Shown here: piece by piece, positions 1 through 58,497 of the stretch | Layout of the letters: every line of letters starts with the position of its first letter | How positions within the stretch are numbered: position 1 is the stretch's first letter | Origin: Candidatus Micrarchaeota archaeon | GTDB taxonomy: Archaea; Micrarchaeota; Micrarchaeia; Micrarchaeales; CABMGC01 | Length of the DNA: 64,000 nucleotides | Direction of reading: 5' to 3' | Assembly: GCA_021850705.1 (NCBI GenBank) | Contig: JAJZKU010000001.1 | Location: 157 to 64,156 of the forward strand | Notes under the pieces: generated by a model | Told to the model about the DNA's origin: nothing | The model's input: the letters and a program-made list of their open reading frames with translations, nothing else | The model's database searches: none | Position numbers and translations under genes: made by a program

Positions 1-2
1 TG

Positions 3-923
3 TTGATAGCGTTCAGTTTTGCAGTTTTCATAGTAATAGCCGTACTTGCAGTATTGAATGAAGGGCTTAATGCCTTTGTTGGAAGCATATTGAGGATTGA
101 TTGGTGGTATTTCGGTGCTGCACTCCTTGCAGTATTTGCAAGTTATGCGATAAGGTTCCCAAAGTGGCAGATGTATCTCAACAAGCTCAAGGTGAGACTG
201 AATCTCAAGACAAGTTTCATGATATACATGTCAATGTATTCAATGGATATTACCCCTGGCAGATGGGGGAGAGCTGTGGTCGCATTCACGATAAACAGGA
301 TAACCGGAGCGAAGTTTGGAAGGACCTTCCCAGCTATAGTAGCAGATAACTTTACGGACTTTCTCGGTTTTGTCATCGTAGCAGCAGTGGCAGTTTTCTT
401 TGTCAATAAGTATGTTCTGCTTTCTGTTATTCTGATTGTACTGATGCTCCTACCCTTTGTATTCTTATACATGGAGAGGCCCTTCAAGTACCTTAAATCA
501 AAATTAGACAAGATAAAAAGGCTTGAAAGCTTCTTTTCCATAGGTCTTATGTATTTCAGGAGGAAGAGGATGCTTGACAGGAACGCCTATATATTTTCAC
601 TCATAGTCACGATACCTTCGGTAATACTGATAGGGCTTGCGCTGTATTTTGTGATACTTGGGTTCGGAGTGCACCTTAGTCCAGCATACCTGCCTACCAT
701 AATATTCGTTTACTGCTTCTCAACAATGCTGGGCATGGTTACAGGAGTTCCAGGAACATTGGGAGTTACCGATGCGGCGCTGCTCACGTATATGACTGCA
801 TTGCTCCCTATCGATTTCGGGCTTGTTGCAGGCATAACGATAATGTTCAGGATAGCGACCGTATGGTTTGTGGAGCTTCTTGGCTTCGGCAGCCTTATCC
901 CGACATTCAAGTACTGGAAGTAG
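3..923 (+). CDS. Polytopic membrane protein, UPF0104 / lysyl-PG-synthase-TM (flippase-like) family; the ORF touches the window edge, so the true start may lie upstream
   Basis: 306-aa ORF with ~8 hydrophobic helices and two family-like P-G-x-x-G loops (ITPGRWGRAV, TGVPGTLGVTDAAL). Confidence 0.45.
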   Translation: MIAFSFAVFIVIAVLAVLNEGLNAFVGSILRIDWWYFGAALLAVFASYAIRFPKWQMYLNKLKVRLNLKTSFMIYMSMYSMDITPGRWGRAVVAFTINRITGAKFGRTFPAIVADNFTDFLGFVIVAAVAVFFVNKYVLLSVILIVLMLLPFVFLYMERPFKYLKSKLDKIKRLESFFSIGLMYFRRKRMLDRNAYIFSLIVTIPSVILIGLALYFVILGFGVHLSPAYLPTIIFVYCFSTMLGMVTGVPGTLGVTDAALLTYMTALLPIDFGLVAGITIMFRIATVWFVELLGFGSLIPTFKYWK

Positions 924-1671
924 AGTGACTTTCTACCGCGCGCTTCTCTGCAAAACTCATCTCCGATGGGATTACGAGGCATGCGGATCTTATCTTTCCG
1001 TTTTTTGAAAGTTCTGCTATCTCCTTTAATGGAGCATACGCTATTCGCTCTTCCTTTCTGCCTATGTCTGCCATGAATACCGCTTTGGTATCTCGGCTCA
1101 CCGTACCTTTTCCCGCTTCCAGGAGTGTAGGTATGGCCTCTGAAGCGCCTATAGATACTCCCTTCTCCTCTGTGACATCAAATAGGACAAGGGTGTGCTG
1201 TTTGTTCTCAAGGTTCTTCTTTATCACATTTACGAAAGAAGTTGGTTTGTACTTTTCCGATACTCTGGGAATTGTTGCAGTTGGCCCGAACTTGTATATG
1301 TCAAGGCCGCTCTCCCCTATCGCAGCGGTGAATATCGATGATGCATGGATTATGGATACCTTTACCTCCTGGCTCTTTGCCTCTTCTATTATTATGTGAT
1401 GGGTGGTTGCAACAAGAGGATCTCCTGGAAAGAGTATTGCAATGGTGTCTTCCTTTGCCATTGAGACCGTGCTCTTTACATGGTCTTCCAGATCTGTTCT
1501 GCTTATCTTCTTGGGCTCTTTGCCTGCAAGCACAGCTATTTCATTTATGTACTCCTGAGTTATGCTAGCGGTGTAGCCTTCATATAGGATAGAATCAGCC
1601 TTCCTTAGAAGCTCTACTGCTTTTATCGGAAGGTCGCCGGAATCAAGGCCGAGGCCTATCAGATAGAGCAT
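907..1671 (-). CDS. dph5: Diphthine synthase (tetrapyrrole-methylase fold)
   Basis: 254 aa with N-terminal MLYLIGLGL and GDPLVATTH motifs typical of Dph5; length fits. Confidence 0.85.
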   Translation of the reverse strand: MLYLIGLGLDSGDLPIKAVELLRKADSILYEGYTASITQEYINEIAVLAGKEPKKISRTDLEDHVKSTVSMAKEDTIAILFPGDPLVATTHHIIIEEAKSQEVKVSIIHASSIFTAAIGESGLDIYKFGPTATIPRVSEKYKPTSFVNVIKKNLENKQHTLVLFDVTEEKGVSIGASEAIPTLLEAGKGTVSRDTKAVFMADIGRKEERIAYAPLKEIAELSKNGKIRSACLVIPSEMSFAEKRAVESHSTSST

Positions 1672-1692
1672 GCAATCAAACCGTTGTGAGAA

Positions 1693-2643
1693 TCAGCCGG
1701 ATATGCCGTTCGGAGTTATCTTTATGACAGCTTCTCCTTCAGGCATGCTTGGCGAGTCTACAAGCTTTACAATGCGCTTCTCCTCCTTTGACTTCCTCAT
1801 GTATAGCCTTGTAGTTGCCGCGTGAGCCACTATATTGCCACCTACAGGGGTCGTAGGGTCTCCGAATAGTATTCCTGGATTATCCATGACCTGATTTGTT
1901 ATATATACGGCAAGATCGTGGGTATCGGCTAGCTGCTGGAGCTTGTGGATGTGCTGGTTGAGCTTCTGCTGCCTCTCGCCCAATGAGCCTCTTCCCAGGT
2001 ATTCTGCCCTGAATAACGCCATGAGCGAGTCCACGACTATGAGCTTGATGTTCTTTTCCTTTATCAGTTTGTCTGCACGCTCTGCGGCAAGTACCTGCTG
2101 GTCCGAAGTGTGTGCGCGTACTACGAAGATGTTCTCGAGTGCTTTCTGAGGGTCCATGCCTGCATTCTTTGCAAGCGCCTCAATCCTCTCGGGCCTGAAG
2201 GTGCCTTCCGTGTCTATGAACAGGACGGTTCCGCCAAGGCCTCCTTCTGACACAGGAAGCTGGACATTTACCGATAGCTGGAAGCCTATCTGGGTCTTCC
2301 CTGCTGCAAACTTCCCGTATGCTTCGGTAATAGCATTTGTCTCCACCCCTCCGCCAAGCAGGTCGTTAAGGTCCTTGGAGCCCGTGGTTATCTTGCCAAG
2401 TATCTTTCTCTTATCGTAAATAGCGGAGCCCGTGTCATATTCAAGGGTGGTAGCCTGCTTTGCGGCTTCTATAGCCTTCTTCGCATTCTCAACGCTCAGG
2501 TTTACAAGGTCTGAAAGCTCATGCGGAGCGGCAGTAGCTATCTTCTCTATGCTATCATATCCGAGCTCCTTGAGCTTCTCCGAAATAGTAGGCCCTATGC
2601 CAGGAAGGTCACCAAGATCTTTTATGCCTTTTTCCTTTGCCAT
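1693..2643 (-). CDS. radA: DNA repair and recombination protein RadA
   Basis: 316 aa with N-terminal HhH (LPGIGPTISEKL), Walker A (GKFAAGKTQ) and IKLIVVDS Walker B-like strand. Confidence 0.95.
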   Translation of the reverse strand: MAKEKGIKDLGDLPGIGPTISEKLKELGYDSIEKIATAAPHELSDLVNLSVENAKKAIEAAKQATTLEYDTGSAIYDKRKILGKITTGSKDLNDLLGGGVETNAITEAYGKFAAGKTQIGFQLSVNVQLPVSEGGLGGTVLFIDTEGTFRPERIEALAKNAGMDPQKALENIFVVRAHTSDQQVLAAERADKLIKEKNIKLIVVDSLMALFRAEYLGRGSLGERQQKLNQHIHKLQQLADTHDLAVYITNQVMDNPGILFGDPTTPVGGNIVAHAATTRLYMRKSKEEKRIVKLVDSPSMPEGEAVIKITPNGISG

Positions 2644-2907
2644 ATAAACTCCCCAGATTTTGTAGATAAGAAGCGGTTTATTACCTTTTATAATACGGTA
2701 TAAACGTTTCCAATATTAAATAAGATACATTAATATATAATAAGGAGTGTGTAAAAAGAGAAAGATAATTGAATAGAGTAGGAAGAGGCCAGCAACGTTT
2801 TCACGCGCTGGCAAGGCGACCAGTTACTCCTCCTCTGATAAAGAACTCGTATTGTAAAGCTCGTTTTAAAGATTTAAAAATCTTTCTGAATAGTGGAATA
2901 GAGTATA

Positions 2908-3566
2908 TGGTGAACTTCCTTACCCTTGATGGGAAAGCTGCGCTTCTTGCAGTGCTTATAGGCATACTGATAGTGCTATTTGGAGGCGTTTACGGCCCGT
3001 TCTTCCTTGCAGTTATAGTACTCTTCCTTGCCTTTTCGGCCATTGTGACAAATGTTGGTATAGGTATAAAGAAGAGGATAAAGGTGTATGAGGCGAAGAG
3101 AGGCTGGAAGAATGTAGTCGCTAATGGGATAATACCACTCATCATAGTGATTATCTATTGGTACTTTGGCAGTAAGATGTTGGATCCGATGGTGCTTGTG
3201 GTAGTTTATATTGCAAGTGTGGCCGGAACAGCTGCTGACAAGTTCGCAAGTGAGCTTGGGGTTCTTGGAGAGACGCCAATATCAATAATCACCTTCAAAA
3301 AGGTCAAGAAAGGCGTGTCTGGAGGGGTTACCGCCTTTGGGACGGTTTCCAGCTTTGTTGGGGCTGCGCTCATAGGGTTCTCAGGCATGGCAGTAGGCCT
3401 TCCCCCTGTGTATGTGTTGATAATAGCGGTTTCAGGGCTGTTGGGCTCTGTGGTAGATTCTATAGCAGGCCATTTTGAGGAGAATGGGATTGGAAATAAG
3501 TATACCTCCAACATACTCTGCGCAATAGCAGCTGCGCTCATAGCCTATGCAATTATTGCTTTGTGA
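2908..3566 (+). CDS. DUF92/TMEM19-family integral membrane protein (start moved to the first ATG; the TTG-extended ORF from 2769 is rejected)
   Basis: Multi-TM ORF; MVNFLTLDGKAALLAVLIG start sits ~30-40 nt downstream of an AT-rich TATA-like palindrome. Confidence 0.5.
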
Positions 3567-4464
3567 AGGTAAGCCAGTGCGCGAATTCAGGATCCTTTCC
3601 TGAGACTATCTCTGTGAACCTGTCCTGTATCATCTTTGTAATGGGACCTGGCTTTCCGTTGCCTATCTTCATCTTGTCTACAGACACTATTGGGGTAATT
3701 TCGGCTGCGGTTCCTGAAAAGAAGAGTTCATCTGCTGTGAGAAGCTCCTCCCTGTGCACAAGCCTCTCTTCCACAGTTATGCCTATGCTTTCCGCTATCT
3801 TCATCACCGAATCTCTGGTTATACCCAGGAGTATGTCCGACTCTATTGAAGGTGTCAGCAGCTTGTTGTCTTCCACAAGGAAGATGTTCTCTCCCGGTCC
3901 TTCCGCCACCCATCCGTTTGTAGAAAGCATTATTGCCTCTTCTGCACCTGAGTTCTTTGCCTCTTTTGAAGCCATTACCGATGTTGCGTAGTTGCCGCTC
4001 AGCTTTGCCTGAGGAGGCAGTATCTGGGAGTTTATCCTGCGCATCGATGAGATCTTGCAGGTTATGCCCTTGTCCTTATCTCCGAAGTAGTTGCCGAAGG
4101 GCACGGCTATTATCGCAACGCTTATCTTCTTCCCTTCAGTGTCAAGCCCTATCTTAGGGTCATTGTAGAATCCGAACGGGCGTATGTAGCATGAGGCGAG
4201 CTTGTTCTTTTCCACTATCTCCAATATCGCCTTTTCCAGCTCCTTCTGGCTGCAGTTAAGCTGCATTCCTGCAATCTTTGCCGTTCTGATGAATCTTGCT
4301 GCGTGTTCCTTAAGCCTGAATACTGCAGGGCCTTTTGCAGTAGAGTATGCCCTTATGCCTTCGAATATCCCGCTCCCATACTGCAGTGAGTGCGTAGAGA
4401 TAGGCACAACCGCCTTTTCAGAATCTATGAATCTTCCATCCAACCATACGTAGCTTTTAGCCAT
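3553..4464 (-). CDS. ilvE: Branched-chain amino acid aminotransferase (class IV PLP fold)
   Basis: 303 aa with GSGIFEGIRAY, YIRP and GENIFLV motifs characteristic of IlvE. Confidence 0.85.
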   Translation of the reverse strand: MAKSYVWLDGRFIDSEKAVVPISTHSLQYGSGIFEGIRAYSTAKGPAVFRLKEHAARFIRTAKIAGMQLNCSQKELEKAILEIVEKNKLASCYIRPFGFYNDPKIGLDTEGKKISVAIIAVPFGNYFGDKDKGITCKISSMRRINSQILPPQAKLSGNYATSVMASKEAKNSGAEEAIMLSTNGWVAEGPGENIFLVEDNKLLTPSIESDILLGITRDSVMKIAESIGITVEERLVHREELLTADELFFSGTAAEITPIVSVDKMKIGNGKPGPITKMIQDRFTEIVSGKDPEFAHWLTFTKQ

Positions 4465-4623
4465 GTAATCAGTCTTATTACTGCTTTAAGTTTATTTAAA
4501 TATACGGATTACGCGGGTTTTTGCAGATTGTCAGATATTTTATATAGAATGGTGAGATAGACAACTGTCAAGATAAATAATTGTTTTTAAATATGAAAAA
4601 TAGCATACTATCTTTGTGATAAT

Positions 4624-4878
4624 ATGAACACCACGAGAGTAAGGAATTGGACAGAAAGTGATAAGCCGGAAATAAGTAAATCTGTAGCTAAACTTTATAG
4701 GGGCGGATATGTGGCAGGAGGAGCACTGGGAGGGATTATAGGAGCATATGTATCTGGCGGCCATGTGACTCTGGAGGGCTCCGTTGCCTTTTTGGCTGCT
4801 GCGGCGGCAGGTCTGGCGATTACAACAGCCGGAAAGAAAGAGCATCTTGATGAACTTAAGAATTCTAAAAGAGAGTAG
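4624..4878 (+). CDS. Small glycine-zipper membrane protein (hypothetical)
   Basis: 84 aa with GGYVAGGALGGIIGAYVSGG glycine zipper and an Ala-rich helix; followed by a T-run terminator. Confidence 0.35.
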   Translation: MNTTRVRNWTESDKPEISKSVAKLYRGGYVAGGALGGIIGAYVSGGHVTLEGSVAFLAAAAAGLAITTAGKKEHLDELKNSKRE

Positions 4879-4890
4879 AGAGATCTGCTC

Positions 4891-4904
4891 TTTTTTTTCT
4901 TTTT
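4891..4904 (+). terminator. Oligo-T archaeal terminator candidate
   Basis: TTTTTTTTCTTTTT begins 13 nt after the TAG stop at 4876-4878. Confidence 0.5.
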
Positions 4905-4910
4905 AATCCG

Positions 4911-4920
4911 TATTTAAATA
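4911..4920 (+). promoter_or_regulatory. TATA-box candidate for the flippase gene
   Basis: TATTTAAATA lies 33-42 nt upstream of the ATG at 4953; the same motif recurs upstream of other genes in the window. Confidence 0.45.
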
Positions 4921-4952
4921 TTTGTCCGCTTAGTCTGTATTGGTTATGATAA

Positions 4953-6533
4953 ATGGCTAAATCAGGTTCGGGTTTGGGTGCAAAGGCAGCTGGTACCATA
5001 TACCCGCTCTTTATCGGAAATGCGCTTGGTGTCTTGCTTGCAGCTTTCAAAATAATAATAGCTACAAGGCTGCTTGGAGCTGCGCTCTTCGGGGTTTACG
5101 TATTTATAGTCAGCTATTATACGCTCATCGGAAGCGTTACTGATTTTGGCATATCCTCTTATTTCAAGAAGTATGTTGCCGAATTAAATTACAAAAAAGA
5201 CGGGAAGAGCATGCAGGAGGTTCTTTCTGCAGGTTTTGTCTCTGTGGCTCTGGTCAGTCTGCTCCTTGCGCTGTTAGGTATCCTTCTAAGTGGTTATGTA
5301 GCATCGGTATTTGGTAGTGCAATAGGGGTGACACAGGCTCTGCTTGAACTTGGCTCGCTTATACTCTTCTCAGCCATAATGTATGGTGCTGTTGCTGGAA
5401 TACTCATAGGGCTGGGAAGGGGCAGGGACTTCTCAGTGGCATATCTGGCATACATGGCTTCGGATCTTACAATAACTGCCTATACACTGCTTAACGGCTA
5501 TGGAGTTGTGGGAATACTGCTTGGCACACTCATAGGAAGCATAATAGGGCTCATAGTGGCGCTCTTCTACATAAACAGGTATCTCTCGCAGTATATGGAT
5601 TTCTGCCCGTGGTATCCCAAAGTGCCGGATGTCAAAAAAGCACTTGCATTCTCTTATCCGCTTGCAATCTATAACTTTTTTACGAATAGCATGCAGAACT
5701 TCTCTGTCATTCTTCTTGGATTTTTTGTAAGCGAGACCGTGATAGGAAATTACGGGACTGCGCTGAAAGGGCTCTCGGTACTCCTTGTATTCTATGGTTC
5801 TGTAGTGGCTGTTATGCTGCCTACGTTTTCAGAAGCAGCTAAGAAGAGTGCAAAGAGAGCTTATAGCGAAGGCGTCTTCAATGCATCTGTACTCTATTCG
5901 GTCTTTGTCACATTTCCAATCCTTCTCTTCTTTGCCATATTCAGCAAATCCATGATATACATATTGATAGGGAGCAGCTATACGCTTGCGCCATTTTACC
6001 TGACATTAATCGCCATAGGAACGATTATGGGGCTGATAGGCTTCTTTTCCGGGTCCATGCTCATAGCACGAGGATTTACAAAGAAGATCCTGAAATATGG
6101 TGCACTCTCTTCTATACTGCAGTTTGCTTCTATGCTGCTTCTCGTACCTTATTTTGGAGTAGTAGGGGCAATAGCAGGCATATTCTTCATTGGGAGCGTT
6201 GCTAACAGCGTATTCTTCACCTTTGCAGTTTCGCGCATGCTTAGAATAAAGATCAATATCTCGAAGTTCTCAAGGCTAACTCTTGCAAACATAGGAGCTG
6301 CGATACTTATGCTGATCGCCCTGTTTGCAACACAGTCGATGGCAGTTGAGATAATAGCAGGATTGGCCATACTGGTAATAGCATATCCTGCACTTGTAGT
6401 AATTTCAAGAGCCATGGACAATGCAGAGATAGAATATTTCAAATCAAGCACCTCTTCGCTTGCGTTTGCAGGTCCTGTCATAGGAGCAGTATGCGATTAT
6501 ATGGCAGCAGTAGGTGAACGTGTAGGCAGTTGA
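4953..6533 (+). CDS. MOP/Wzx-type polysaccharide (oligosaccharide) flippase
   Basis: 526 aa with ~14 predicted TM helices and the general architecture of polysaccharide-biosynthesis flippases. Confidence 0.6.
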   Translation: MAKSGSGLGAKAAGTIYPLFIGNALGVLLAAFKIIIATRLLGAALFGVYVFIVSYYTLIGSVTDFGISSYFKKYVAELNYKKDGKSMQEVLSAGFVSVALVSLLLALLGILLSGYVASVFGSAIGVTQALLELGSLILFSAIMYGAVAGILIGLGRGRDFSVAYLAYMASDLTITAYTLLNGYGVVGILLGTLIGSIIGLIVALFYINRYLSQYMDFCPWYPKVPDVKKALAFSYPLAIYNFFTNSMQNFSVILLGFFVSETVIGNYGTALKGLSVLLVFYGSVVAVMLPTFSEAAKKSAKRAYSEGVFNASVLYSVFVTFPILLFFAIFSKSMIYILIGSSYTLAPFYLTLIAIGTIMGLIGFFSGSMLIARGFTKKILKYGALSSILQFASMLLLVPYFGVVGAIAGIFFIGSVANSVFFTFAVSRMLRIKINISKFSRLTLANIGAAILMLIALFATQSMAVEIIAGLAILVIAYPALVVISRAMDNAEIEYFKSSTSSLAFAGPVIGAVCDYMAAVGERVGS

Positions 6534-6607
6534 TGCGCCAGCCGGGATTTGAACCCGGGTTATTGCCTTGGGAAGGCAAAGTCCTGGCCAGGCTAGACTA
6601 CTGGCGC
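6534..6607 (-). tRNA. tRNA-Gly (anticodon CCC)
   Basis: Hand-folded cloverleaf: acceptor GCGCCAG/CTGGCGC, anticodon arm TTGCC-TTCCCAA-GGCAA, T-arm CCGGG-TTCAAAT-CCCGG; 74 nt, no encoded CCA. Confidence 0.9.
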
Positions 6608-7360
6608 CTATCTAATATAAGGCATTCCTTCTGAAGGTTTTGATGGATCATGCGTATCTATAGACTGCTCTATTTCCTTTATCACGCGTTCCGTCTCCTT
6701 CTTGAGTTTGTCCAGGTTTTCAAGCTCTATCTTCGTGCCTATTATATTCTCCATTACACGCAGGACGGCCCTGGCAGCGCTTGCGTCTATTTCAAGGAAG
6801 CCTGTCTCGCCCATAAGGCATGCCGAAGGTATGTCATACTTCTGTGCAAAAACAGGTATGAGCCCTGCGGATCCCCATATGGTACCGGTTATCTTACCGA
6901 ATATTACACCTTGCTTTTCCAGCTCCTTCCTCATGGTCTTGTCGTTTGAGACCGCAAAGACCTTCGGTGATTCAGTATATTTATTGGATGCGTTGTATCC
7001 GCCTATAGTATAGATACGCTTCCCGCCGAGTTTCTTGAAAAACTTGACTATCAGTTCATTAACCTCGTACTGCCCTTCTGAGGATGGAGATTGCGTGTCT
7101 CCAAGAAGTACCAGTATGTCCTTTCCTTTTATGTTTTTGTAATAGAATCTGTTGCTTACCGCCCTGAAGCCTCCGCTCTTGAGCATCAGGACCTGATGGA
7201 GAAAGTATGGAGAATAGAGAGTGGCGAATTTCTCGGCTTTTATTGACTTTCGTATATGCTCAGCTGCAAGATTGCCGACGTTTCCTATACCCGGAAGTCC
7301 TACTATCAGTATAGGATCCTTAAGCTTCTTTTTCTTGTAGTATATCTTGGTCTTGTCCAG
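6608..7360 (-). CDS. PAC2-family proteasome assembly chaperone; start codon uncertain (no ATG/GTG/TTG in the conserved-looking N-terminal extension)
   Basis: The frame stays open upstream of the ATG at 7186 back to 7372 and encodes DPILIVGLPGIGNVGNLAAEHI, the usual PAC2 N-terminus. Confidence 0.6.
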   Translation of the reverse strand: MDKTKIYYKKKKLKDPILIVGLPGIGNVGNLAAEHIRKSIKAEKFATLYSPYFLHQVLMLKSGGFRAVSNRFYYKNIKGKDILVLLGDTQSPSSEGQYEVNELIVKFFKKLGGKRIYTIGGYNASNKYTESPKVFAVSNDKTMRKELEKQGVIFGKITGTIWGSAGLIPVFAQKYDIPSACLMGETGFLEIDASAARAVLRVMENIIGTKIELENLDKLKKETERVIKEIEQSIDTHDPSKPSEGMPYIR

Positions 7361-7364
7361 GCAA

Positions 7365-8123
7365 TCACTTGTTCACTTTCTTAAAAGCATACTGAACGTC
7401 GGAAGAGTGCTTTTCCAGTATCGCTTCTGCACTCTTTATCCTCGCTTCTGCTTTCGTGTAATCGGAATCTGTTGATGTAAGGGAGTAATGCGGAGCTCCC
7501 AGATATCTGGTCTCATTTCCCTGAGCGGCTATCTCCTTCAGAAGCGTCTTTATCAGGATTATCCCTTTCTGGGGATTTGTCACGTTGAGTTCCAGATTGT
7601 AAGAAACAGTATATGTCTTTGGTTTTATGTTCTTGTTTGCGGCTTCGTAGAATGCTTCCTTGAAGGTATTGTCTCCGCACGCTGCGAGAGGATCCTTGCC
7701 TTCATAAGCAAGAGTTAGCAGTTCGTGGTATGTCATTATGTTCTGAGGTATCTTGCTTATTATTTCCTCTTTGGCATTCTCTTTCTTTGCAAGTTTTGCC
7801 GTGCTGTCGAATATTGCCTTTGCCCTTTTCTCCGCGCTGTAATCGTTTATCTTATCCTTCTTCTCCTTCTGTGTTACCTTTTTCAGTGAGATGTCCACAG
7901 CGTTCTTAGTAGGATCTATGAAGATTACCTTTGCTACGTCCTGCTGCCCCTCTCTTATGAATTCATGTATGTTCTTTATCCAGCCTGAAGAGACTTCAGA
8001 TATAGGAAGATAGGCGTCCACGCCGTACTCTTCAAGCTTGCAGTACGCACCGTGAGGGGTAACCTTTGTTATCTTTATTATTACGAACTCTCCCTGTATG
8101 GGAAGCTCTTTTTTTCTTAACAT
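7365..8123 (-). CDS. Translation initiation factor aIF2 alpha subunit
   Basis: 252 aa with N-terminal S1 domain (GEFVIIKITKVTPHGAYCKLEEY...ISEVSSGWIKNI) followed by a helical/alpha-beta C-terminus. Confidence 0.85.
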   Translation of the reverse strand: MLRKKELPIQGEFVIIKITKVTPHGAYCKLEEYGVDAYLPISEVSSGWIKNIHEFIREGQQDVAKVIFIDPTKNAVDISLKKVTQKEKKDKINDYSAEKRAKAIFDSTAKLAKKENAKEEIISKIPQNIMTYHELLTLAYEGKDPLAACGDNTFKEAFYEAANKNIKPKTYTVSYNLELNVTNPQKGIILIKTLLKEIAAQGNETRYLGAPHYSLTSTDSDYTKAEARIKSAEAILEKHSSDVQYAFKKVNK

Positions 8124-8127
8124 TTAA

Positions 8128-8409
8128 TCAGTGCTTTATTTCGATCTTCTTCTTTGTCCTCCTGCCGAATACCCTTTCTGTTGTCTTCTTGCATACAGTA
8201 CATTGTACCATTACCTTCTGTCTCTTGCCCAGTTTCTTGGGGTGTATCTTAGGCTCGACGCTGCCTACATAACCCTTAATTGCTCTGTTGTGCCTCCTTG
8301 TACCTAGGCTTAACCCTGACTGCGGCTTTTTGTTATACGGCTTCACAAGCTGTTTTGTATGCTTGCCGCAGAATTTGCAATACATATTCAATTCCTTATC
8401 TATTTTCAT
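8128..8409 (-). CDS. rpl44e: Ribosomal protein L44e (eL42)
   Basis: 93 aa, basic, with two CxxC pairs (CKFCGKH, CTVCKK) and KGYVG motif. Confidence 0.85.
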   Translation of the reverse strand: MKIDKELNMYCKFCGKHTKQLVKPYNKKPQSGLSLGTRRHNRAIKGYVGSVEPKIHPKKLGKRQKVMVQCTVCKKTTERVFGRRTKKKIEIKH

Positions 8410-8417
8410 AAAATCAC

Positions 8418-8864
8418 TTAACCTATTTTCTCTCCTATATTGTTTTCTATTATAAACATAATATCGTCATTGCTGTTTATATCTATTATCTCATTTTTGT
8501 TATACGGCCCTAGTTTCGTGCCTGTGTTTGTTATTATTTCTGGTACGTCCATGTTTATCTTGATTTTGGTAGAATTTTGGATTTTGCCTTTCTTGAGAAC
8601 CGCTCTTATTTTTGAGTATATTTCCTGCTCCTCATCTGCAACCTCGTTGCCTATCTGTTTATCATATGCAAGATACATTAATATTTTCTGTGTCCTTTTC
8701 TCTTTTAGGAAACCAAGCGTGTTTGAAATATTTGTTTTTTCAACCTCGTTTTTAGAGTTTTTGATCAAATCCTCGGCTTCTTTGTAAAAATCCTTATGCA
8801 TAGGGAGAAGTTTGCTCGTGTTTTTCTCTTTCTTATAAAAATCTATAAGGTCTAAATACTCCAT
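8418..8864 (-). CDS. GINS subunit (Gins51/Gins15-like)
   Basis: 148 aa; N-terminal pattern L..FYKKEK....L.P...DFY and a C-terminal small beta-domain; visibly AT-rich. Confidence 0.55.
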   Translation of the reverse strand: MEYLDLIDFYKKEKNTSKLLPMHKDFYKEAEDLIKNSKNEVEKTNISNTLGFLKEKRTQKILMYLAYDKQIGNEVADEEQEIYSKIRAVLKKGKIQNSTKIKINMDVPEIITNTGTKLGPYNKNEIIDINSNDDIMFIIENNIGEKIG

Positions 8865-8875
8865 TTTTACACAAC

Positions 8876-8987
8876 AGGGTTGAGTTCCACTAATATTTTA
8901 TTTTGCTCTGCAAATAAAAAATAAATACTAAAGCGTAATTTACTACTATATATTATATAAGTAAGCCGAATAGTGGAACTGTACCCT
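8876..8987. repeat. Interrupted 15-bp inverted repeat enclosing a 78-bp AT-rich core
   Basis: AGGGT-tg-AGTTCCACTA (8876-8892) is the reverse complement of TAGTGGAACT-gt-ACCCT (8971-8987). Confidence 0.7.
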
Positions 8988-8995
8988 CTACTGTA

Positions 8996-9070
8996 TAGCG
9001 AGAGGTGGATTTGAACCACCGATCTCCGGGTTATGAGCCCGGCGGGCACTCCAGTCTACCCTACCTCGCT
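8996..9070 (-). tRNA. Initiator tRNA-Met (anticodon CAT)
   Basis: 75-nt cloverleaf with A1:U72, three G:C pairs closing the anticodon stem (CCGGG-CTCATAA-CCCGG) and T-arm GGTGG-TTCAAAT-CCACC. Confidence 0.9.
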
Positions 9071-9103
9071 ACTGTGATATAAGAAGGACAAGATTACTTT
9101 ACC

Positions 9104-9883
9104 TTACTTACTTTTTAAACCTTTTATGAAAAGCTTGGCATTCTCCCTATCTACCATATCAAGCTTGCTTCCGCAATCCGAGCATTTAAAACCATATTCT
9201 ATAGCAGAATCGAAAGGCAGTATTAACATGTTGTTTTCATAGCATTTCTTGCATAAGAAGAAGTCATTGCAGTTATCTTGGAGAACAGCTTCCACAGCAA
9301 CAGGCGCATTCTTATGCGCATTTGCATACTCAGAAAGCTTTTCAGCATCTATCCTCCATGTAAAAATGAGCCAACCGCTATTGTCCTTAGTTACATCATA
9401 CTTGGTTATTCCGTGCCCGTTCATCATGTTTAGCGCCCTCCTCACCTCATTTATCTTCATCTCAAGCTTCTCCGCAATCTTCTCATCCGTCTGAGGCTTC
9501 TTATAAAGGGTCTTAACTATGTCTACAGACCTGTCCCCTACTGTATTTGTCAGGTGCACGGTGAAATTAGGGTCGGTAAAAACCTCCTCCACAACCTCCA
9601 TATCATGCTTTCTGTGCTCATGCTCCAAAGCTTCGGCCTCCTTCTCCCTGCGCTCCTTCAATGTCTCCTTAACCGCGACCTTAGGCACTACGCTGGCACT
9701 CTTATGAACGTTCTTAGTATTAACTGCTACTTTCTTTGCTGCATGCTGCACAGGGCGCTTATTTGGCTTAACTGCTGCCTTATGCGGCTTTATGTGTAAA
9801 TGGGCCTTATTCGACTTCTTTGCAGTAGGTTTCTGATGCTTATTCTTAGAACTCCTTCCTTTGTTTTTGTTTGGTTTTGGCAT
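9104..9883 (-). CDS. tfe: Transcription factor E alpha (TFE) with a ~100-aa lysine-rich N-terminal extension
   Basis: C-terminal wHTH plus Zn-ribbon (CKKC...CSDCG). Start set at MPKPNK because the TATA-like box at ~9925-9935 is too close to the 9919 ATG. Confidence 0.75.
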   Translation of the reverse strand: MPKPNKNKGRSSKNKHQKPTAKKSNKAHLHIKPHKAAVKPNKRPVQHAAKKVAVNTKNVHKSASVVPKVAVKETLKERREKEAEALEHEHRKHDMEVVEEVFTDPNFTVHLTNTVGDRSVDIVKTLYKKPQTDEKIAEKLEMKINEVRRALNMMNGHGITKYDVTKDNSGWLIFTWRIDAEKLSEYANAHKNAPVAVEAVLQDNCNDFFLCKKCYENNMLILPFDSAIEYGFKCSDCGSKLDMVDRENAKLFIKGLKSK

Positions 9884-10057
9884 GAGGATCACTTTGAGGG
9901 ACAAGACAATATTATGCACGTTCTTCTATTTAAACATATTGCTTCAACAAGCCCGAAGCGTTGTCGCCTACACTAAAATATGTCTTTCCTGATATTTAAA
10001 TACGATGGTTTTGTCTCTGGTATACATATGGTTCTGGCTAAGGAAAATAGCATAATA

Positions 10058-10132
10058 TGGGCCCGGAGGGATTTGAACCCTCGACTTGCTGGTTAAGAGC
10101 CAGCCACTCTGACCAAACTGAGTTACGGACCC
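10058..10132 (-). tRNA. tRNA-Lys (anticodon CTT)
   Basis: 75-nt cloverleaf: acceptor GGGTCCG/CGGGCCC, anticodon arm GCTGG-CTCTTAA-CCAGC, T-arm GAGGG-TTCAAAT-CCCTC. Confidence 0.9.
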
Positions 10133-11019
10133 GGTTGTTTTCTCTTCCTGGCTGCGCCAGCCATATTCATCATAATAAGGCTTGCAAGATGTGCTGTCAT
10201 ACCCCGAGAATCATACTTTGGGTTGAGCTCCATTACATCAAAGCCAAGATTTACGCTCTTTCCTATAGTAGAAGCAATATATAATATTTCCCTTGCTGCA
10301 AGTCCGCCTGGTACCGGAGTGCTTACTCCAGGAGCGAAAGCAGGGTCCACAGAGTCAAGGTCAATAGAGACATATACATTATCGGTTACCATGCTTCTTG
10401 CATACTTCGAAACAGCAACTATTCCCTCATCTATTATCTTGTCCATACCCACAAACTTTATGCCTGCTTTTTCAACCTCTGCCATCTCCTCATTCTCTAT
10501 GGCACGCGCTCCTATTATCAGGCTTGAGCCAGGCTCAACATTCTTCAAAGCAAGGACATCGTGTACTACCGAACCGTAATACCTTCCAGCAGAACCCACA
10601 CAATCAGGATGCGCATCTATATAGACAAAACTCCAAGAGTCAACGCATGAATCTATACCTCTGAGTATCTCATAAGTTATAGAATGATCCCCGCCTATGC
10701 ACCCTACCACTCTTTTATTCAAAACCTGCTTTCTTACAAATTCTTCAACTCTCGTCTTTTGGATATTGCCTGCATCATAACAGTTAAGTGGTCCTGAACC
10801 TAACCTGCTATACATTAATGATGAACTCTTCCCCCTCCTTACAGAATCAAACTTTACCGACGTTGCCCTTGCAGCCTCAGGGCCTCCCGAACTCCCCTTC
10901 CTGGGAGCTCTGGAACCTCTCTCACTTGCAACACCGAATATTACCGTATCTGAACTCTTTTCATCAGGAGAGGTACACCATGGAAAAACAAGTTTTCTGC
11001 CTTTTGCCAAAAATAACAC
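10123..11019 (-). CDS. speB: Agmatinase / ureohydrolase family
   Basis: GGDHSIT, DAHPD and SIDLDSVDPAFAPG metal-binding motifs; GTG start lies inside repeat copy A. Confidence 0.8.
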   Translation of the reverse strand: MLFLAKGRKLVFPWCTSPDEKSSDTVIFGVASERGSRAPRKGSSGGPEAARATSVKFDSVRRGKSSSLMYSRLGSGPLNCYDAGNIQKTRVEEFVRKQVLNKRVVGCIGGDHSITYEILRGIDSCVDSWSFVYIDAHPDCVGSAGRYYGSVVHDVLALKNVEPGSSLIIGARAIENEEMAEVEKAGIKFVGMDKIIDEGIVAVSKYARSMVTDNVYVSIDLDSVDPAFAPGVSTPVPGGLAAREILYIASTIGKSVNLGFDVMELNPKYDSRGMTAHLASLIMMNMAGAARKRKQPGP

Positions 11020-11164
11020 CTGCTACAAAATATGTATATTAAAGCATTATAAACACGCCATCTCCAGCTTCAAAACAGTTCAGAGAACGTCTTGATAGTC
11101 AATGTGCAATAGACATATGGATAAAAACGATTACTGTCAGCTACAGGTTTAACCTCTTGAAAAG
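11004..11164. repeat. Direct repeat copy A (speB/gyrB promoter-region duplication)
   Basis: Aligns with 12462-12611 by eye, including a 32-nt identical core AATGTGCAATAGACATATGGATAAAAACGATT (11101-11132 = 12548-12579). Confidence 0.85.
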
Positions 11165-11299
11165 TATATCTTAAATCATTGTAAAACAGTAGTTATGCCG
11201 AGGCTTTGTCGTTTTATTAACACTTCTGTCGTTTTATTCCTTTTTAAAACTCAGCCCAAAATTTTAATATAAAGTCATTCATTATTTTATCGTGATTGT

Positions 11300-11510
11300 A
11301 TGGCAACAAAAGCAAAACAAAGTGCAGAAACTGAGATAGTATCAGATGTGACAGCTATTTTGACACGTCTTGAGCGATCCCGGTAGATTATCTGGAAATG
11401 ATATAGAGAAACTTAAAGAGTCAATAAGAGAACTTTATGCAAAACAGATTATTGGTGAAGTGGAAATGGGTTTGTCGCTCAGAGAGCGTGCAAAACAACG
11501 CACAGATTAA
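11300..11510 (+). pseudogene. Small ORF disrupted by a +1 frameshift (hypothetical, helical)
   Basis: ATG at 11300 gives 28 aa then TAG at 11384-11386. The +1 frame continues GRLSGNDIEKLKESIRELYAKQIIGEVEMGLSLRERAKQRTD to 11510. Confidence 0.2.
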
Positions 11511-12001
11511 TTATTTTGCTTTAAATTTTTAAGCGCCTTGTATCTTTTATAGTATTTCTTAGGGTTATCTTTGCTATTTATAGAAGCCCATTTATAGATA
11601 GCGATGAGGTTTTTAAGACTTACAATTTTTAATTTACAATTACTAAACTTATAATACTTCGGATGGCTCAAATTTATACTCCAAAACTGATAAGAGTCCA
11701 CCTCTATTTTTAAATCATCCCTGAATATCTGTATTGTATGCCATTTAGTTGAATATTTGTATTTTATCTTTCTTTTCGATAATGCTTTATCTATCTTTTT
11801 GAGTGCATTTTCTGAAACAAGAAGATCTATGTCATTTACTCTTATATTGCTATTTTTTGTATATATGAAATAAACCAAACTACCATAAGCAATTGGTGTT
11901 ATCTTTAAATCCTTACATATGATTATTAACTCATTACAAAACGCTATAAGTCTTTTAAACTCCCCCTTATTCCTAGGATATACGGGTTCCAATTTAAACA
12001 C
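11507..12001 (-). CDS. Pol-beta-superfamily nucleotidyltransferase (Lnu/ANT-like size and motif)
   Basis: 164 aa; the G-S...D-x-D signature (YGSLVYFIYTKNSNIRVNDIDLLV) is the minimal NTase motif; strongly AT-rich relative to neighbours. Confidence 0.5.
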   Translation of the reverse strand: MFKLEPVYPRNKGEFKRLIAFCNELIIICKDLKITPIAYGSLVYFIYTKNSNIRVNDIDLLVSENALKKIDKALSKRKIKYKYSTKWHTIQIFRDDLKIEVDSYQFWSINLSHPKYYKFSNCKLKIVSLKNLIAIYKWASINSKDNPKKYYKRYKALKNLKQNN

Positions 12002-12006
12002 TCGTT

Positions 12007-12480
12007 TTAATTGATAAATTTAGCATCTATACCTAACTCGAAACTCTCTTGAATTAGAACATAGATATTATGGCAAAGAACCTTTAAAAGAACCTCGTTT
12101 AACTGTGCCGTTCTGTCCTTGCTTCTAACCAAATCTGTGAACTTCGACTTTATCATCCAAATTGTACTTTCTACATTACTCCTGTTATGGTAATGTGTTA
12201 GAAATTCCTCTCTGTTATAAGTAAAATATCTAAACATCCTCACCCGTGTATAGCTACCACTTGAATTACCAGCCGCATTACTTCTAAACGCTATAAATGG
12301 AGTGTCACCTATTGAACGGACAATGGTGTGGTTATCTCGCGAGCTATACGCTTTATCTGCGGAAGCCAGATCAAATTCTACCTTCCACCAATCGTCCACC
12401 TGCAATCTCAATATTGCAGTCGTTTCCGTGTTCTCCTGCTGAACTTCCATTCCAGGAACCCTTGCCAAAATAACACCCAC
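12007..12480 (-). mobile_element. N-terminally truncated DDE transposase (IS4/IS5 type) remnant
   Basis: Has ADKAYSS (second D region) and an exact Y-x2-R-x3-E-x6-K signature (YHNRSNVESTIWMIK) but lacks the first catalytic-D region. The 5' end is fused to repeat copy B. Confidence 0.6.
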
Positions 12481-12611
12481 TATAAGGCATGTATGAACGT
12501 GCCATCTCCAGCTTCAAAACAGCCTCCAGAGAACGCTTTTAATAGTTAATGTGCAATAGACATATGGATAAAAACGATTCTTAGTAACTACAGTTTTAAC
12601 CTCGGGAAAAC
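12462..12611. repeat. Direct repeat copy B (immediately upstream of gyrB)
   Basis: Partner of 11004-11164, same orientation, with a ~13-nt indel and scattered substitutions. Confidence 0.85.
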
Positions 12612-12631
12612 AATTTATAAATGCTGATAAA

Positions 12632-14536
12632 ATGGCTGACGAAACTTACGATGCTTCAAAGATTATTGTGCTTGAAGGAGCACAGGGCATACGCAAGAGA
12701 CCATCGATGTATATAGGGTCGACAGGTCCATCAGGAATAATACATCTGTTATACGAAGTTATGGATAATGCAGTAGACGAATCCTCTGCCGGATACTGTA
12801 AAAACATAAAAATAAAACTATACAAGCAAGATGGCGCAGACATAGCTGAGGTATCAGACGACGGAAGGGGGATACCTGTAGGGATAATGGAGAAGTACGG
12901 AAAGAGCGCCCTCGAAGTCATAATGACGACACTGCACAAAGGCGCAAAATTCGAGAATGACGTTTACAAGGTATCTGGTGGACTTCATGGTGTAGGACTC
13001 ACCGTAGTAAACGCCCTATCTGAATTCACAGAGGTCACGGTGAAAAGAAACGGCAACATATACAGGCAGACCTTTAGCAGAGGACTCCCAACATCAAAGC
13101 TTGAAGTCATAGGGGAGACCAAGGAGACAGGCACAACAGTAAAGTTCAAGCCAGACTCTGAGATATTCAGTGTAAACACATTTGACATAGCCCTGCTGAA
13201 TGAAAGGTCTCGATACATAAGCTACACCAACGTCGGCCTGCGTATCATAATAACGGATGAGCGCTTCGGAGACAAGGTAGAGGAGACCTACTACTCTGAA
13301 AACGGGATAATCGACTTTGTAGAGTATATAAACAGGGAAAGATCTCCTATAACCTCTGTAATATACGGCAAAACTACTGCAGATTCTACTACGTTGGAGT
13401 ATGCAATGCAGTACACCGAGTCATATGACGAGAAGATAGAGTCTTTTGTAAACAGCATAAAAATGAACGAAGGAGGGACGCACCTTTCAGGTTTCCACGC
13501 TGCATTGACAAGAGCCATAACCAATTACATAGACAAGAACAAGTCTCTCAACACTAAGGCGAAGATAACCGGAGACGATGCAAAAGAAGGCCTTACTGCA
13601 ATAGTGAGTATAAAGATGCAGAATCCGGAATTCGAGGGTCAGACAAAGGAGAAACTGGGAAACGTGAAGATGAAGACCCTTGTAGAGACCTTTGCATACC
13701 AGAACATCTCAAGGTATCTGGAAGAGCATCCTTCAGATGCCAAATCAATAATAAGGAAGATAACCGAGGCTGCAAACGCACGTGACGCTGCAAGGCGTGC
13801 CCGTGAACTTGAGAGAAAGAAGAGCATATTCTCAAGCGCTGTCCTTCCAGGCAAGTTATCGGACTGCATACTCAGCGACCCTGAAAAGACCGAGCTCTTC
13901 ATAGTGGAAGGGGAGAGCGCAGGAGGGTCGAGCAAGCAGGGAAGGGACAAGAACATACAGGCGATACTTCCTTTAAGGGGAAAGATACTCAATGTAGAGA
14001 AGGCAAGCTATGAAAAGATATTCGATAACAAGGAGATAAAAACCATGATTACTGCATTCGGCACAGGTATAAACGAGACATTTAATGCTGCAAACATACG
14101 ATACAAGAAGATAATAATAATGACCGACGCAGACGTTGACGGGAGCCACATAAGGACACTTCTGCTCACATTCTTTTACAGGTACATGCGCAAGATAATA
14201 GAACTCGGTTACGTATACGCTGCACAGCCCCCTCTATATAAAATTGGAAAAGGCAAGGACGAATACTACTGTTACAGCGACGAAGAACTCGCTGAGAAGC
14301 GCAAAGAGTACGGGGAGAATGTAGAGATTCAGAGGTACAAGGGACTCGGAGAGATGAACTACGAGCAGCTATGGGAAACAACAATGAACCCGAAGAACAG
14401 GAAGCTGAAGAAACTATCTATAGAAGACGGTCTTCATGCAGATGAACTTTTCACCATACTTATGGGTGCAGACGTGGCAAAGCGTAGAAGATACCTGCAG
14501 GAACATGCAAAGGAGGTAAAAACACTCGACATATAG
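12632..14536 (+). CDS. gyrB: DNA gyrase subunit B
   Basis: 634 aa with GHKL ATPase N-terminus (VLEGAQGIRKRPSMYIGST), Toprim EGESAGG and PLRGKILNVEKA. Confidence 0.97.
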   Translation: MADETYDASKIIVLEGAQGIRKRPSMYIGSTGPSGIIHLLYEVMDNAVDESSAGYCKNIKIKLYKQDGADIAEVSDDGRGIPVGIMEKYGKSALEVIMTTLHKGAKFENDVYKVSGGLHGVGLTVVNALSEFTEVTVKRNGNIYRQTFSRGLPTSKLEVIGETKETGTTVKFKPDSEIFSVNTFDIALLNERSRYISYTNVGLRIIITDERFGDKVEETYYSENGIIDFVEYINRERSPITSVIYGKTTADSTTLEYAMQYTESYDEKIESFVNSIKMNEGGTHLSGFHAALTRAITNYIDKNKSLNTKAKITGDDAKEGLTAIVSIKMQNPEFEGQTKEKLGNVKMKTLVETFAYQNISRYLEEHPSDAKSIIRKITEAANARDAARRARELERKKSIFSSAVLPGKLSDCILSDPEKTELFIVEGESAGGSSKQGRDKNIQAILPLRGKILNVEKASYEKIFDNKEIKTMITAFGTGINETFNAANIRYKKIIIMTDADVDGSHIRTLLLTFFYRYMRKIIELGYVYAAQPPLYKIGKGKDEYYCYSDEELAEKRKEYGENVEIQRYKGLGEMNYEQLWETTMNPKNRKLKKLSIEDGLHADELFTILMGADVAKRRRYLQEHAKEVKTLDI

Positions 14537-37847: not shown

Positions 37848-37851
37848 TTAA

Positions 37852-37897
37852 TCAGCACTCAAGATCGTCATCACCATTCAGACCTTCAGCTCATCAT
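37852..37897 (-). ncRNA. Candidate C/D-box sRNA in the histone 5' leader
   Basis: Minus strand reads AUGAUGA-9nt-CUGA-AUG-GUGAUGA-12nt-CUGA, i.e. C, D', C' and D boxes in the correct order; the D box ends 4 nt before the histone ATG. Confidence 0.55.
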
Positions 37898-37918
37898 CCG
37901 TTCTATATGATATGTAAA

Positions 37919-57353: not shown

Positions 57354-57623
57354 CTACTCCTTTATGCCTTCAAGCATGCTGAGTATATTCCATACTACCG
57401 TCCTTGCATAAGGCGGCAGGTTTATGTCATTGCTTATCTCGTCTACCTTGTATGTTGCGGTTCCGGCTCTTACTGAATACGCGTTGTTTTCCTGTTCAAG
57501 AGCGGCTTTGGCTTCACTAAGTGAGTTCTTAACATTTCTCGGAACGCTGTTATCATTGAGCAACGAGTCTATCTGTTGCTTGATTTGCGCAATCATCTCG
57601 TCAAATTCCTTATTATTTCCCAT
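57354..57623 (-). CDS. UPF0147-family small protein
   Basis: 89 aa with VPRNVK...SNDINLPPYARTVVWNILSMLE pattern. Confidence 0.65.
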   Translation of the reverse strand: MGNNKEFDEMIAQIKQQIDSLLNDNSVPRNVKNSLSEAKAALEQENNAYSVRAGTATYKVDEISNDINLPPYARTVVWNILSMLEGIKE

Positions 57624-57639
57624 AAGATCACTTTATGTA

Positions 57640-57728
57640 CGGGCCCGGCGGGACTTTCAGAAGGTCTTTTGAACCCGCGACCCTCAGATTAGAAGTCTGT
57701 CGCTCTGTCCAAGCTGAGCTACGGGCCC
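57640..57728 (-). tRNA. tRNA-Arg (anticodon TCT) with a 14-nt intron at 59/60 (intron = 57654-57667)
   Basis: 89 nt; removing AGACCTTCTGAAAG restores a 75-nt cloverleaf with T-arm GCGGG-TTCAAAT-CCCGC; a bulge-helix-bulge motif is present. Confidence 0.85.
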
Positions 57729-57735
57729 ATAAGTG

Positions 57736-58497
57736 TCAAATATAAAAAAACCTCTTCAGGTTCCCAGTTACCATAGAAGCCACATCATAAAAGCCAATGC
57801 CTTTCATTTTGGATATGAGTTCCAAGGTTTCCTTCACATCAGAAGGTTTCTGTCCGGCAACCGGGGAATCCGTCTCAACTACTATATTACCTATGTCAAG
57901 ATGCTTTATAATCTTTTTCCTGTTCGAGGTAAGCCTTGGTGGTATCGATATCAGGTGGCCCATGCCTGCCAGTTTCTGCGCCTCCTCAAGAGTACCATCA
58001 AAGAAGTGCATCATAAAACGCACCCCAGAAGACTCCTTCACAATATCTATGACATGCTTCATCATCCCACGCGAATGCACTACTACAGGTATCTCAAGTC
58101 CCTCAGCGATTTTAATCTGCTTTCTAAAGATATCCTTCTGCAGTCCAAGGTCATACTTATCAAGATACTTCACATCAAGTCCAACCTCTCCTATCCCTAT
58201 TATCTTAGGGTTTGCCCTTATCTGCATCTCGATATCATCTATCCTGTCAGCATCTTCTATAGCAGAAGGATCTATGCCTATTGTAGCAAATACGCCATCA
58301 TAATTGGTCATCTCAACCGCTCCCATGTTGCCTTCCACTGTACCTCCAGCCGTTATGATTATCCCAACTCCTTCTTCACGCGCCATCTCAATCGTCTCCA
58401 AAGGATGTTTGAAGAGTTCAAGATGGCAGTGTGCATCAGACATCTCTGCAATTTCTAGAAGATTTTCCTTTACCATCTCTTTGGAAAGTTGAGCCAT
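57736..58497 (-). CDS. tatD: TatD-family metal-dependent hydrolase
   Basis: DAHCHL start motif and subsequent H/E/D metal ligands of the TIM-barrel hydrolase. Confidence 0.85.
   Translation of the reverse strand: MAQLSKEMVKENLLEIAEMSDAHCHLELFKHPLETIEMAREEGVGIIITAGGTVEGNMGAVEMTNYDGVFATIGIDPSAIEDADRIDDIEMQIRANPKIIGIGEVGLDVKYLDKYDLGLQKDIFRKQIKIAEGLEIPVVVHSRGMMKHVIDIVKESSGVRFMMHFFDGTLEEAQKLAGMGHLISIPPRLTSNRKKIIKHLDIGNIVVETDSPVAGQKPSDVKETLELISKMKGIGFYDVASMVTGNLKRFFYI

Follow-up and report, generated by a model that had tools for sequence, protein, structure and literature searches.

A tRNA-Arg(UCU) gene of Micrarchaeota with a very probable 14-nt bulge-helix-bulge intron in its T-loop and a predicted epsilon2-type splicing endonuclease in the same genome

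The closest described counterparts of the locus reported here come from ARMAN-2 (Ca. Micrarchaeum acidiphilum), in which introns at position 59/60 interrupt both tRNA-Cys(GCA), where the intron has 13 nt and a relaxed hBH motif, and tRNA-Pro(GGG) (Fujishima et al. 2011, PMC3239211). The relaxed 13-nt intron of pre-tRNA-Cys is cleaved in vitro by the epsilon2 splicing endonuclease (EndA) of ARMAN-2 (PMC3239211; Hirata et al. 2012, PMC3488258), and epsilon2 enzymes of both ARMAN-1 and ARMAN-2, together with a Mancarchaeum homolog, were reported in 2018 (PMC5829648). Lys161, in an ARMAN-specific loop that spans G158-H165 (GTYKVSEH), confers broad specificity on the ARMAN-2 enzyme, the catalytic triad of which is Tyr236/His251/Lys282 (PMC3488258), and the specificity loop has been explained again in a structure paper of 2025 (PMC12397907). 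Non-canonical tRNA introns are also attributed to Thermoproteales and other archaea with an (alpha-beta)2 EndA in the passage of PMC4033280 that cites Sugahara et al. (2008). The biology considered here has therefore been in print since 2011, and what is new is another tRNA, Arg-UCU, in another species. The finding leaves current understanding unchanged; for an uncultured species, it confirms that disrupted tRNA genes and an epsilon2 endonuclease go together, as published.

The locus is very probably a functional Micrarchaeota (DPANN) tRNA-Arg(UCU) gene with a 14-nt archaeal bulge-helix-bulge (BHB) intron at 59/60. It resembles pre-tRNA-Cys(GCA) of ARMAN-2, a member of the same phylum, in the 59/60 site, in intron length (14 versus 13 nt), in the use of the T-stem as outer helix, in having little or no inner helix and in the epsilon2-type enzyme of its host. 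It differs from that precursor in the identity of the tRNA and in the species, and whereas the ARMAN-2 substrate is of the hBH/BHL form without h', a 2-bp h' can be drawn in our sequence and its first pair covaries across relatives. Cleavage of the ARMAN-2 precursor has been demonstrated in vitro, whereas that of the tRNA-Arg precursor is predicted. With pre-tRNA-Pro(GGG) of ARMAN-2 (PMC3239211) the locus shares a 59/60 intron in a Micrarchaeota tRNA and the 3-4-3 geometry, but that precursor carries two T-loop introns (53/54 and 59/60) of the strict hBHBh' form, whereas the present gene has one intron with a minimal inner helix; it is the longer orthologs of our tRNA-Arg, with introns of 18-27 nt, that resemble this strict form. 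As in Thermoproteales, to the extent that the citing article describes them, a short BHB or relaxed-BHB intron outside the anticodon loop is correlated with a broad-specificity endonuclease, but those organisms belong to another superphylum and combine an (alpha-beta)2 enzyme with a CSL loop, in contrast to epsilon2 with an ASL loop here. The topology is identical to that of the canonical archaeal 37/38 intron, the predicted cuts follow the second nucleotide in both 3-nt bulges, and since loop positions 54-60 map one-for-one onto 32-38, site 59/60 is the structural equivalent of 37/38; the difference is that the motif is on the T-arm and not on the anticodon arm.

The gene occupies 57640..57728 on the minus strand of the window (by which we mean the whole stretch of 64,000 nt that was analysed) and has 89 nt including the intron and no encoded CCA. 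Read from 57728 to 57640 it is GGGCCCG TA GCTC AGCTTGGACA GAGC G ACAGA CTTCTAA TCTGA GGGTC GCGGG TTCAAA (AGACCTTCTGAAAG) T CCCGC CGGGCCC G, with the intron in parentheses. Exon 1 (61 nt, 57668..57728, minus strand) reaches from the acceptor 5' strand to T-loop position 59 and is nearly invariant in 18 aligned orthologs; the 14-nt intron AGACCTTCTGAAAG (57654..57667, minus strand) lies between T-loop positions 59 and 60; and exon 2 (14 nt, 57640..57653, minus strand) consists of T60, the T-stem 3' strand, the acceptor 3' strand and the discriminator G. The anticodon TCT (57691..57693, minus strand) reads AGA/AGG and is also the one that ARAGORN reports on the spliced form. The first-pass annotation of this DNA had called an 89-nt minus-strand tRNA-Arg(UCU) gene, which both the sequence and that ARAGORN call bear out, and had described all arms as canonical except for the T-loop, which does not hold for pair 27-43, an A.A mismatch (window positions 57684 and 57700, minus strand; columns 29 and 45 of alignment A1) that in the relatives of the same alignment is G.A or G.U and never Watson-Crick. 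Directly around the tRNA, on the same minus strand, are a TatD-family gene (57736..58497; Pfam TatD_DNase, 4.6e-48) that ends a few nucleotides upstream and a UPF0147 gene (57354..57623; Pfam UPF0147, 7.7e-25) that starts 16 nt downstream. The host needs this tRNA, in that AGA (31.6%) and AGG (48.2%) together make up 80% of the arginine codons in the longer ORFs of the window.

Standard tRNA finders do not see the gene. ARAGORN run on the window does not report it, the 89-nt form submitted alone also gives nothing, and the Rfam tRNA model returns a partial match to 57728-57670 only, at 33.1 bits, misaligned and with the T-arm skipped. Finders that allow introns only in the anticodon loop miss the gene because the motif is built on the T-arm. 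By contrast, deletion of the 14 nt leaves a 75-nt sequence that ARAGORN identifies as tRNA-Arg(tct) and whose centroid fold is the cloverleaf, with the predicted spliced junction ...GGGTTCAAA joined to TCCCGCC. It had been claimed at the outset that cutting both bulges behind their second nucleotide would yield TTCAAAT, the T-loop of the three other tRNAs of the window, and this was correct: alignments give TTCAAAT as the T-loop of its tRNA-Lys, tRNA-Gly and tRNA-Met. When both strands of the window were scanned in full for a structure made up of a T-stem strand of 5 bp, TTCRAN, 8-130 nt of insert, the complementary T-stem strand and an acceptor that matches at 7/7 positions, no second such site besides 57728-57640 was found, which speaks against a chance occurrence. 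There are no further partial tRNA matches in the window at E<=1. Because ARAGORN and Rfam in its default alignment drop the gene, genomes of this lineage appear to lack a tRNA for AGA/AGG, and conclusions on genome completeness or codon reassignment could be misled by the dropped tRNA-Arg(UCU).

The same rejection by ARAGORN and Rfam is what speaks for a pseudogene, that is, for a tRNA-Arg inactivated by a 14-nt insertion whose decoding role has been taken over by another copy. We regard this as highly improbable. AGR triplets dominate the arginine codons of the window at the 80% given above, and ARMAN-type genomes have only about 43-45 tRNA genes (PMC3239211). Moreover, the exons are nearly invariant over at least 18 orthologs while the insert varies in sequence and length, the insert always keeps the BHB geometry, and four species whose flanks are 85-93% identical share exactly the same gene. 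The functional, intron-containing gene remains the reading that we carry forward.

Within the precursor, the exon strand TTCA (T54-A57, 57670..57673) of the putative central BHB helix is complementary to TGAA at intron nt 9-12 (57656..57659), both on the minus strand, as are all elements of the motif. The 5' bulge is formed by A58, A59 and intron A1 (57667..57669), with the 5' splice site after A59, a placement that we make by analogy with 36-37 plus intron at the canonical site; the 3' bulge is formed by A, G and T60 (57653..57655), with the 3' splice site predicted before T60, and appears as an unpaired 3-nt bulge in the RNAalifold consensus. The outer helix h is the T-stem, whose 5' strand GCGGG (57674..57678) is 100% paired with the 3' strand CCCGC (57648..57652) by the pair counts of the alignment, with one compensatory change (A-U) and two G-U pairs among relatives. 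The inner helix h' is minimal, a GA/TC helix of 2 bp around a CCT loop (57660..57666). The pairings proposed in the first-pass annotation, namely the TTCA(54-57)/TGAA helix, the bulges AAA and AGT and a possible GA/TC helix, are all present. Its further description of the BHB as clean is right as to the complete geometry and too generous as to the inner helix: set against the strict motif, h is a 5-bp T-stem, but h' amounts to one G-C and one A-U pair around a 3-nt loop, and RNAfold draws no h'. When the isolated T-arm with its intron is folded, an AGA/UCU hairpin at -9.2 kcal/mol is better by 1.1 kcal/mol than the BHB fold at -8.1 kcal/mol; the BHB is not the minimum-energy fold, and the 2-bp inner helix never forms in RNAfold of the isolated sequence. 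Since single-sequence thermodynamics gives it no support, the case for the BHB rests on comparison. With its full 3-4-3 geometry and minimal h', the motif is borderline between strict and relaxed and lies near the hBH/BHL class, so that near-relaxed describes it better than clean.

The comparison draws on scans of metagenomes and of genomes, the latter with one genome per GTDB species and a pattern of the Arg(UCU) anticodon arm, GGGTTCRAA, 8-30 nt and TCCC. Chance matches in the genome scan, mostly bacterial and haloarchaeal and consisting of an intron-less tRNA with a downstream TCCC, were removed by acceptor complementarity. The two scans together yielded at least 20 distinct inserts of 14-27 nt exactly at 59/60 of orthologous genes. 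At most Micrarchaeota loci the tRNA is directly upstream of UPF0147, and at most of these it also directly follows a TatD-family gene, and it is because of these same neighbours that we treat the loci as orthologous. The intron is polymorphic across the clade, since versions of tRNA-Arg(UCU) without it occur in related lineages: there are at least 10 such orthologs (L134, L136, L140, L141, L149, L151, L155, L157, L160 and L161 from metagenomes and L073 from a genome). In L073, a Micrarchaeota sequence, AGACCTTCTGAAAG is missing and the junction reads GGGTTCAAATCCCGC, exactly as predicted for the spliced product, with an Rfam tRNA score of 72.5 bits; in other relatives at least 19 different sequences of 14-27 nt replace it. 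The L073 junction and the series of at least 20 inserts at one site substantiate the original claim of a 14-nt T-loop intron at 59/60.

An alignment of 18 sequences shows exons that are nearly invariant and an insert whose sequence is wholly changed from one ortholog to the next. What the inserts have in common is a layout of one nucleotide, a variable inner part, TGAA or TGAG (GGAG once) and two nucleotides. Among the matches listed, 19 of 20 inserts have TGAA/TGAG and the remaining one has GGAG, and since the layout is common to all variants, the 4-bp helix with T54-A57 is complete in 19 of the 20. All 17 aligned intron variants keep the 3-4-3 BHB geometry, the central 4-bp helix is paired in 98.5% of their cells, and the structure as named is paired in 93.5% of the cells of the 18-sequence alignment. 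The covariation score of 0.108 compares with 0.055 for shuffled alignments (0/500 as high) and with at most 0.036 for slid partners. The exon strand of the central helix is fixed by tRNA function, so that two-sided covariation is not possible there; the first inner pair (columns 63-82), which adjoins the 5' bulge, forms in 17/17 variants, with A-U in seven, U-A in seven and G-C in three. RNAalifold, left unguided, returned a cloverleaf in which the 4-bp helix prolongs the T-stem and 3 nt bulge out on the 3' side. The inner helix has 4-7 bp in introns of 18-27 nt, which gives these the strict hBHBh' form, and 1-2 bp in introns of 14-15 nt, that of the window included.

These data bear on whether the tRNA might work as it stands, unspliced and with an expanded T-loop of 21 nt, to which we assign only a very slight probability. 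Among orthologs the insert has anything from 0 to 27 nt, and in a gene from Nanohaloarchaea it has 121 nt; with a length so variable it is not a constrained structural element of the mature tRNA. The part of it that is conserved corresponds exactly to the recognition geometry of the endonuclease, and the host encodes an enzyme of the type known to cut such motifs, as set out below. Hence we favor removal of the insert by splicing, and the series of at least 20 intron variants at one orthologous site could serve for defining the minimal substrate.

The insert is also reproduced across assemblies. Contigs that bear the TatD-family gene were recovered from six separate assemblies (five ENA, one JGI); four of them hold the complete, unchanged 89 nt and the other two match up to their end at T60. 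Three further species carry the identical 89-nt gene, L071 with 90-93% nucleotide identity in the flanks, L057 with 85-89% and L088 with 85%, and a metagenome sequence (L143) has the intron of the window with one extra T in the loop (AGACCTTTCTGAAAG). A spurious 14-nt insertion made by an assembly or sequencing error could find some encouragement in the fact that a related contig (L005) is a palindromic chimera and that two contigs break inside the tRNA. Such an error, whose probability is close to nil, is refuted by the independent assemblies: the complete gene stands in four separately assembled ENA/JGI contigs and runs to T60 in two more, the same 89 nt are found in three GTDB species representatives, and the variant in L143, from another metagenome, differs by a 1-nt indel.

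As to the contigs themselves, L004 and L006, which stem from separate ENA assemblies, have the same terminal base, ...CTGAAAGT, which is T60 of the tRNA-Arg(UCU), and the palindromic chimera in L005 (1340-1810) has its hinge just downstream of the tRNA. The common break of L004 and L006 could reflect variation between strains or the integration of an element at the 3' end of the tRNA; att-like repeats in the form of duplicated tRNA segments were looked for in the window and none were found.

Among the matches listed from the genome scan, all inserts within the T-loop come from Candidatus Micrarchaeota, Micrarchaeia or Micrarchaeaceae, with the exception of one longer insert in Nanohaloarchaea. 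In the NCBI taxonomy the phylum Micrarchaeota is now Microcaldota, in the DPANN kingdom Nanobdellati. The suggestion in the first-pass annotation that the intron marks a lineage of ultrasmall acidophilic archaea agrees with the closest genomes, which share the identical tRNA at 85-93% nucleotide identity and are labelled Candidatus Micrarchaeota. The exception, L112, is a tRNA-Arg(UCU) on the plus strand at about 6936-7140 of a Nanohaloarchaea MAG (JAUVES010000004.1), with a 121-nt insert at 59/60 that ends in TGAAAA|T and with one U.U mismatch in its T-stem. That another DPANN phylum has an insert at this site too could mean that the intron originated before these DPANN phyla diverged. As a tentative reading, to which we give well under even chances, the 59/60 intron may be ancient at this Micrarchaeota locus and vertically inherited, having repeatedly shrunk to about 14 nt while keeping only the recognition geometry and having sometimes been lost. 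If this were true, the locus would be a natural series for the reduction of BHB introns and for the minimal epsilon2 substrate.

The splicing endonuclease of the host was located just outside the window. In two other Micrarchaeota species RadA, TP_methylase and EndA stand in a row, and for this reason EndA was sought beside RadA (1693-2643) and TP_methylase (907-1671) of the window. It was not found in the window, where the minus strand of 1-906 has stops in all frames; a position inside the window was ruled out, and the gene lies beyond the left edge. A truncated LPG_synthase_TM gene (3-923, plus strand) is inserted on the opposite strand between TP_methylase and EndA. A search with the window's own TP_methylase protein led to a contig, L165, that is 100.000% identical to window positions 1-11671 and extends 9 kb further. 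It encodes an EndA of 384 aa at 11842-12996 (plus strand of L165), which corresponds to 171-1325 nt beyond the left edge of the window. Another candidate for the host enzyme, P0110, was rejected, as identity between its contigs and the window is no more than about 70% and it belongs to a different, co-occurring species.

The best PDB match of the L165 protein is the epsilon2 EndA of ARMAN-2 (4fz2_A), with residues 10-384 aligned to 12-387 in one stretch (495.6 bits, E = 8e-148), and Pfam assigns the domains tRNA_int_endo_N and tRNA_int_endo. Its specificity loop GSYKASER aligns with GTYKVSEH of ARMAN-2 and keeps the lysine, and its triad motifs FRVY, WTHSKH and SVRKTF align with FRIY, WIHSKH and SVRKTF. 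Judged by these alignments, the host encodes a three-unit EndA of the epsilon2 type, with alphaN, alpha and betaC in one polypeptide. It is like the ARMAN-2 enzyme (PDB 4FZ2 / 9W2K) in the three units, the ASL lysine and the Tyr/His/Lys motifs, and unlike it in sequence, being 57% identical to the ARMAN-2-like representative P0001; its dimerisation and activity are predictions. Enzymes of this type are common in public data of the Micrarchaeota type: a search with fragments of the ARMAN-2 EndA gave 1,404 homologs at E<=1e-10, the 120 of them that were listed are 368-406 aa long, with 97-100% of the three-unit query covered, and the named sources among these 120 are mostly Micrarchaeota, Micrarchaeia and Micrarchaeaceae, with a few Marsarchaeota or Nitrososphaerota. 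The first-pass annotation had predicted from the intron a broad-specificity endonuclease in the host and pointed to the architecture of EndA, which on L165 proves to be of the epsilon2 type. A strict BHB at a non-canonical site does not by itself require a broad-specificity enzyme (PMC3488258), and predicting the enzyme from the intron relies on a correlation, which in this genome happens to be borne out.

Based on the motif, its conservation and the predicted endonuclease, we put forward a hypothetical path from the precursor to the mature tRNA. The gene would be expressed as a pre-tRNA-Arg(UCU) whose T-arm mimics an anticodon arm that holds a canonical 37/38 intron, with its T-stem as the outer helix. 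T54-A57 and TGAA of the intron would form the 4-bp central helix, flanked by the 3-nt bulges A58-A59-A and A-G-U60, and the minimal 2-bp helix would close the loop of the intron. We propose that the three-unit epsilon2 enzyme of the host, acting as a homodimer, cleaves both bulges behind their second nucleotide, which would free the 14-nt intron and leave exon 1 with 61 nt and exon 2 with 14 nt. An RNA ligase would join the exons and thereby re-create TTCAAAT as the T-loop; addition of CCA would follow, a post-transcriptional step that we assume because the gene encodes none.

Other RNA features of the window deserve mention. A likely archaeal C/D-box sRNA lies at 37850-37901 on the minus strand, with GGATGATGA as box C, a 9-nt guide, CTGA as D', GTGATGA as C', a 12-nt guide and CTGA as D; its Rfam matches are all below threshold, the best being sR28 with 31.3 bits against a gathering score of 39. 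The tRNA-Met of the window (8995-9071, minus strand) carries A1-U72, and its anticodon stem has three G-C pairs at the base, a pattern that we take to be that of an archaeal initiator tRNA. Beyond the window, a co-occurring Micrarchaeota species has on contig L129 (15238-16524) a large subunit of ribonucleotide reductase with an intein (Intein_splicing and LAGLIDADG; 1126 aa), and on L128 (15559-16846), from another assembly, a large subunit of ribonucleotide reductase is called at 760 aa.
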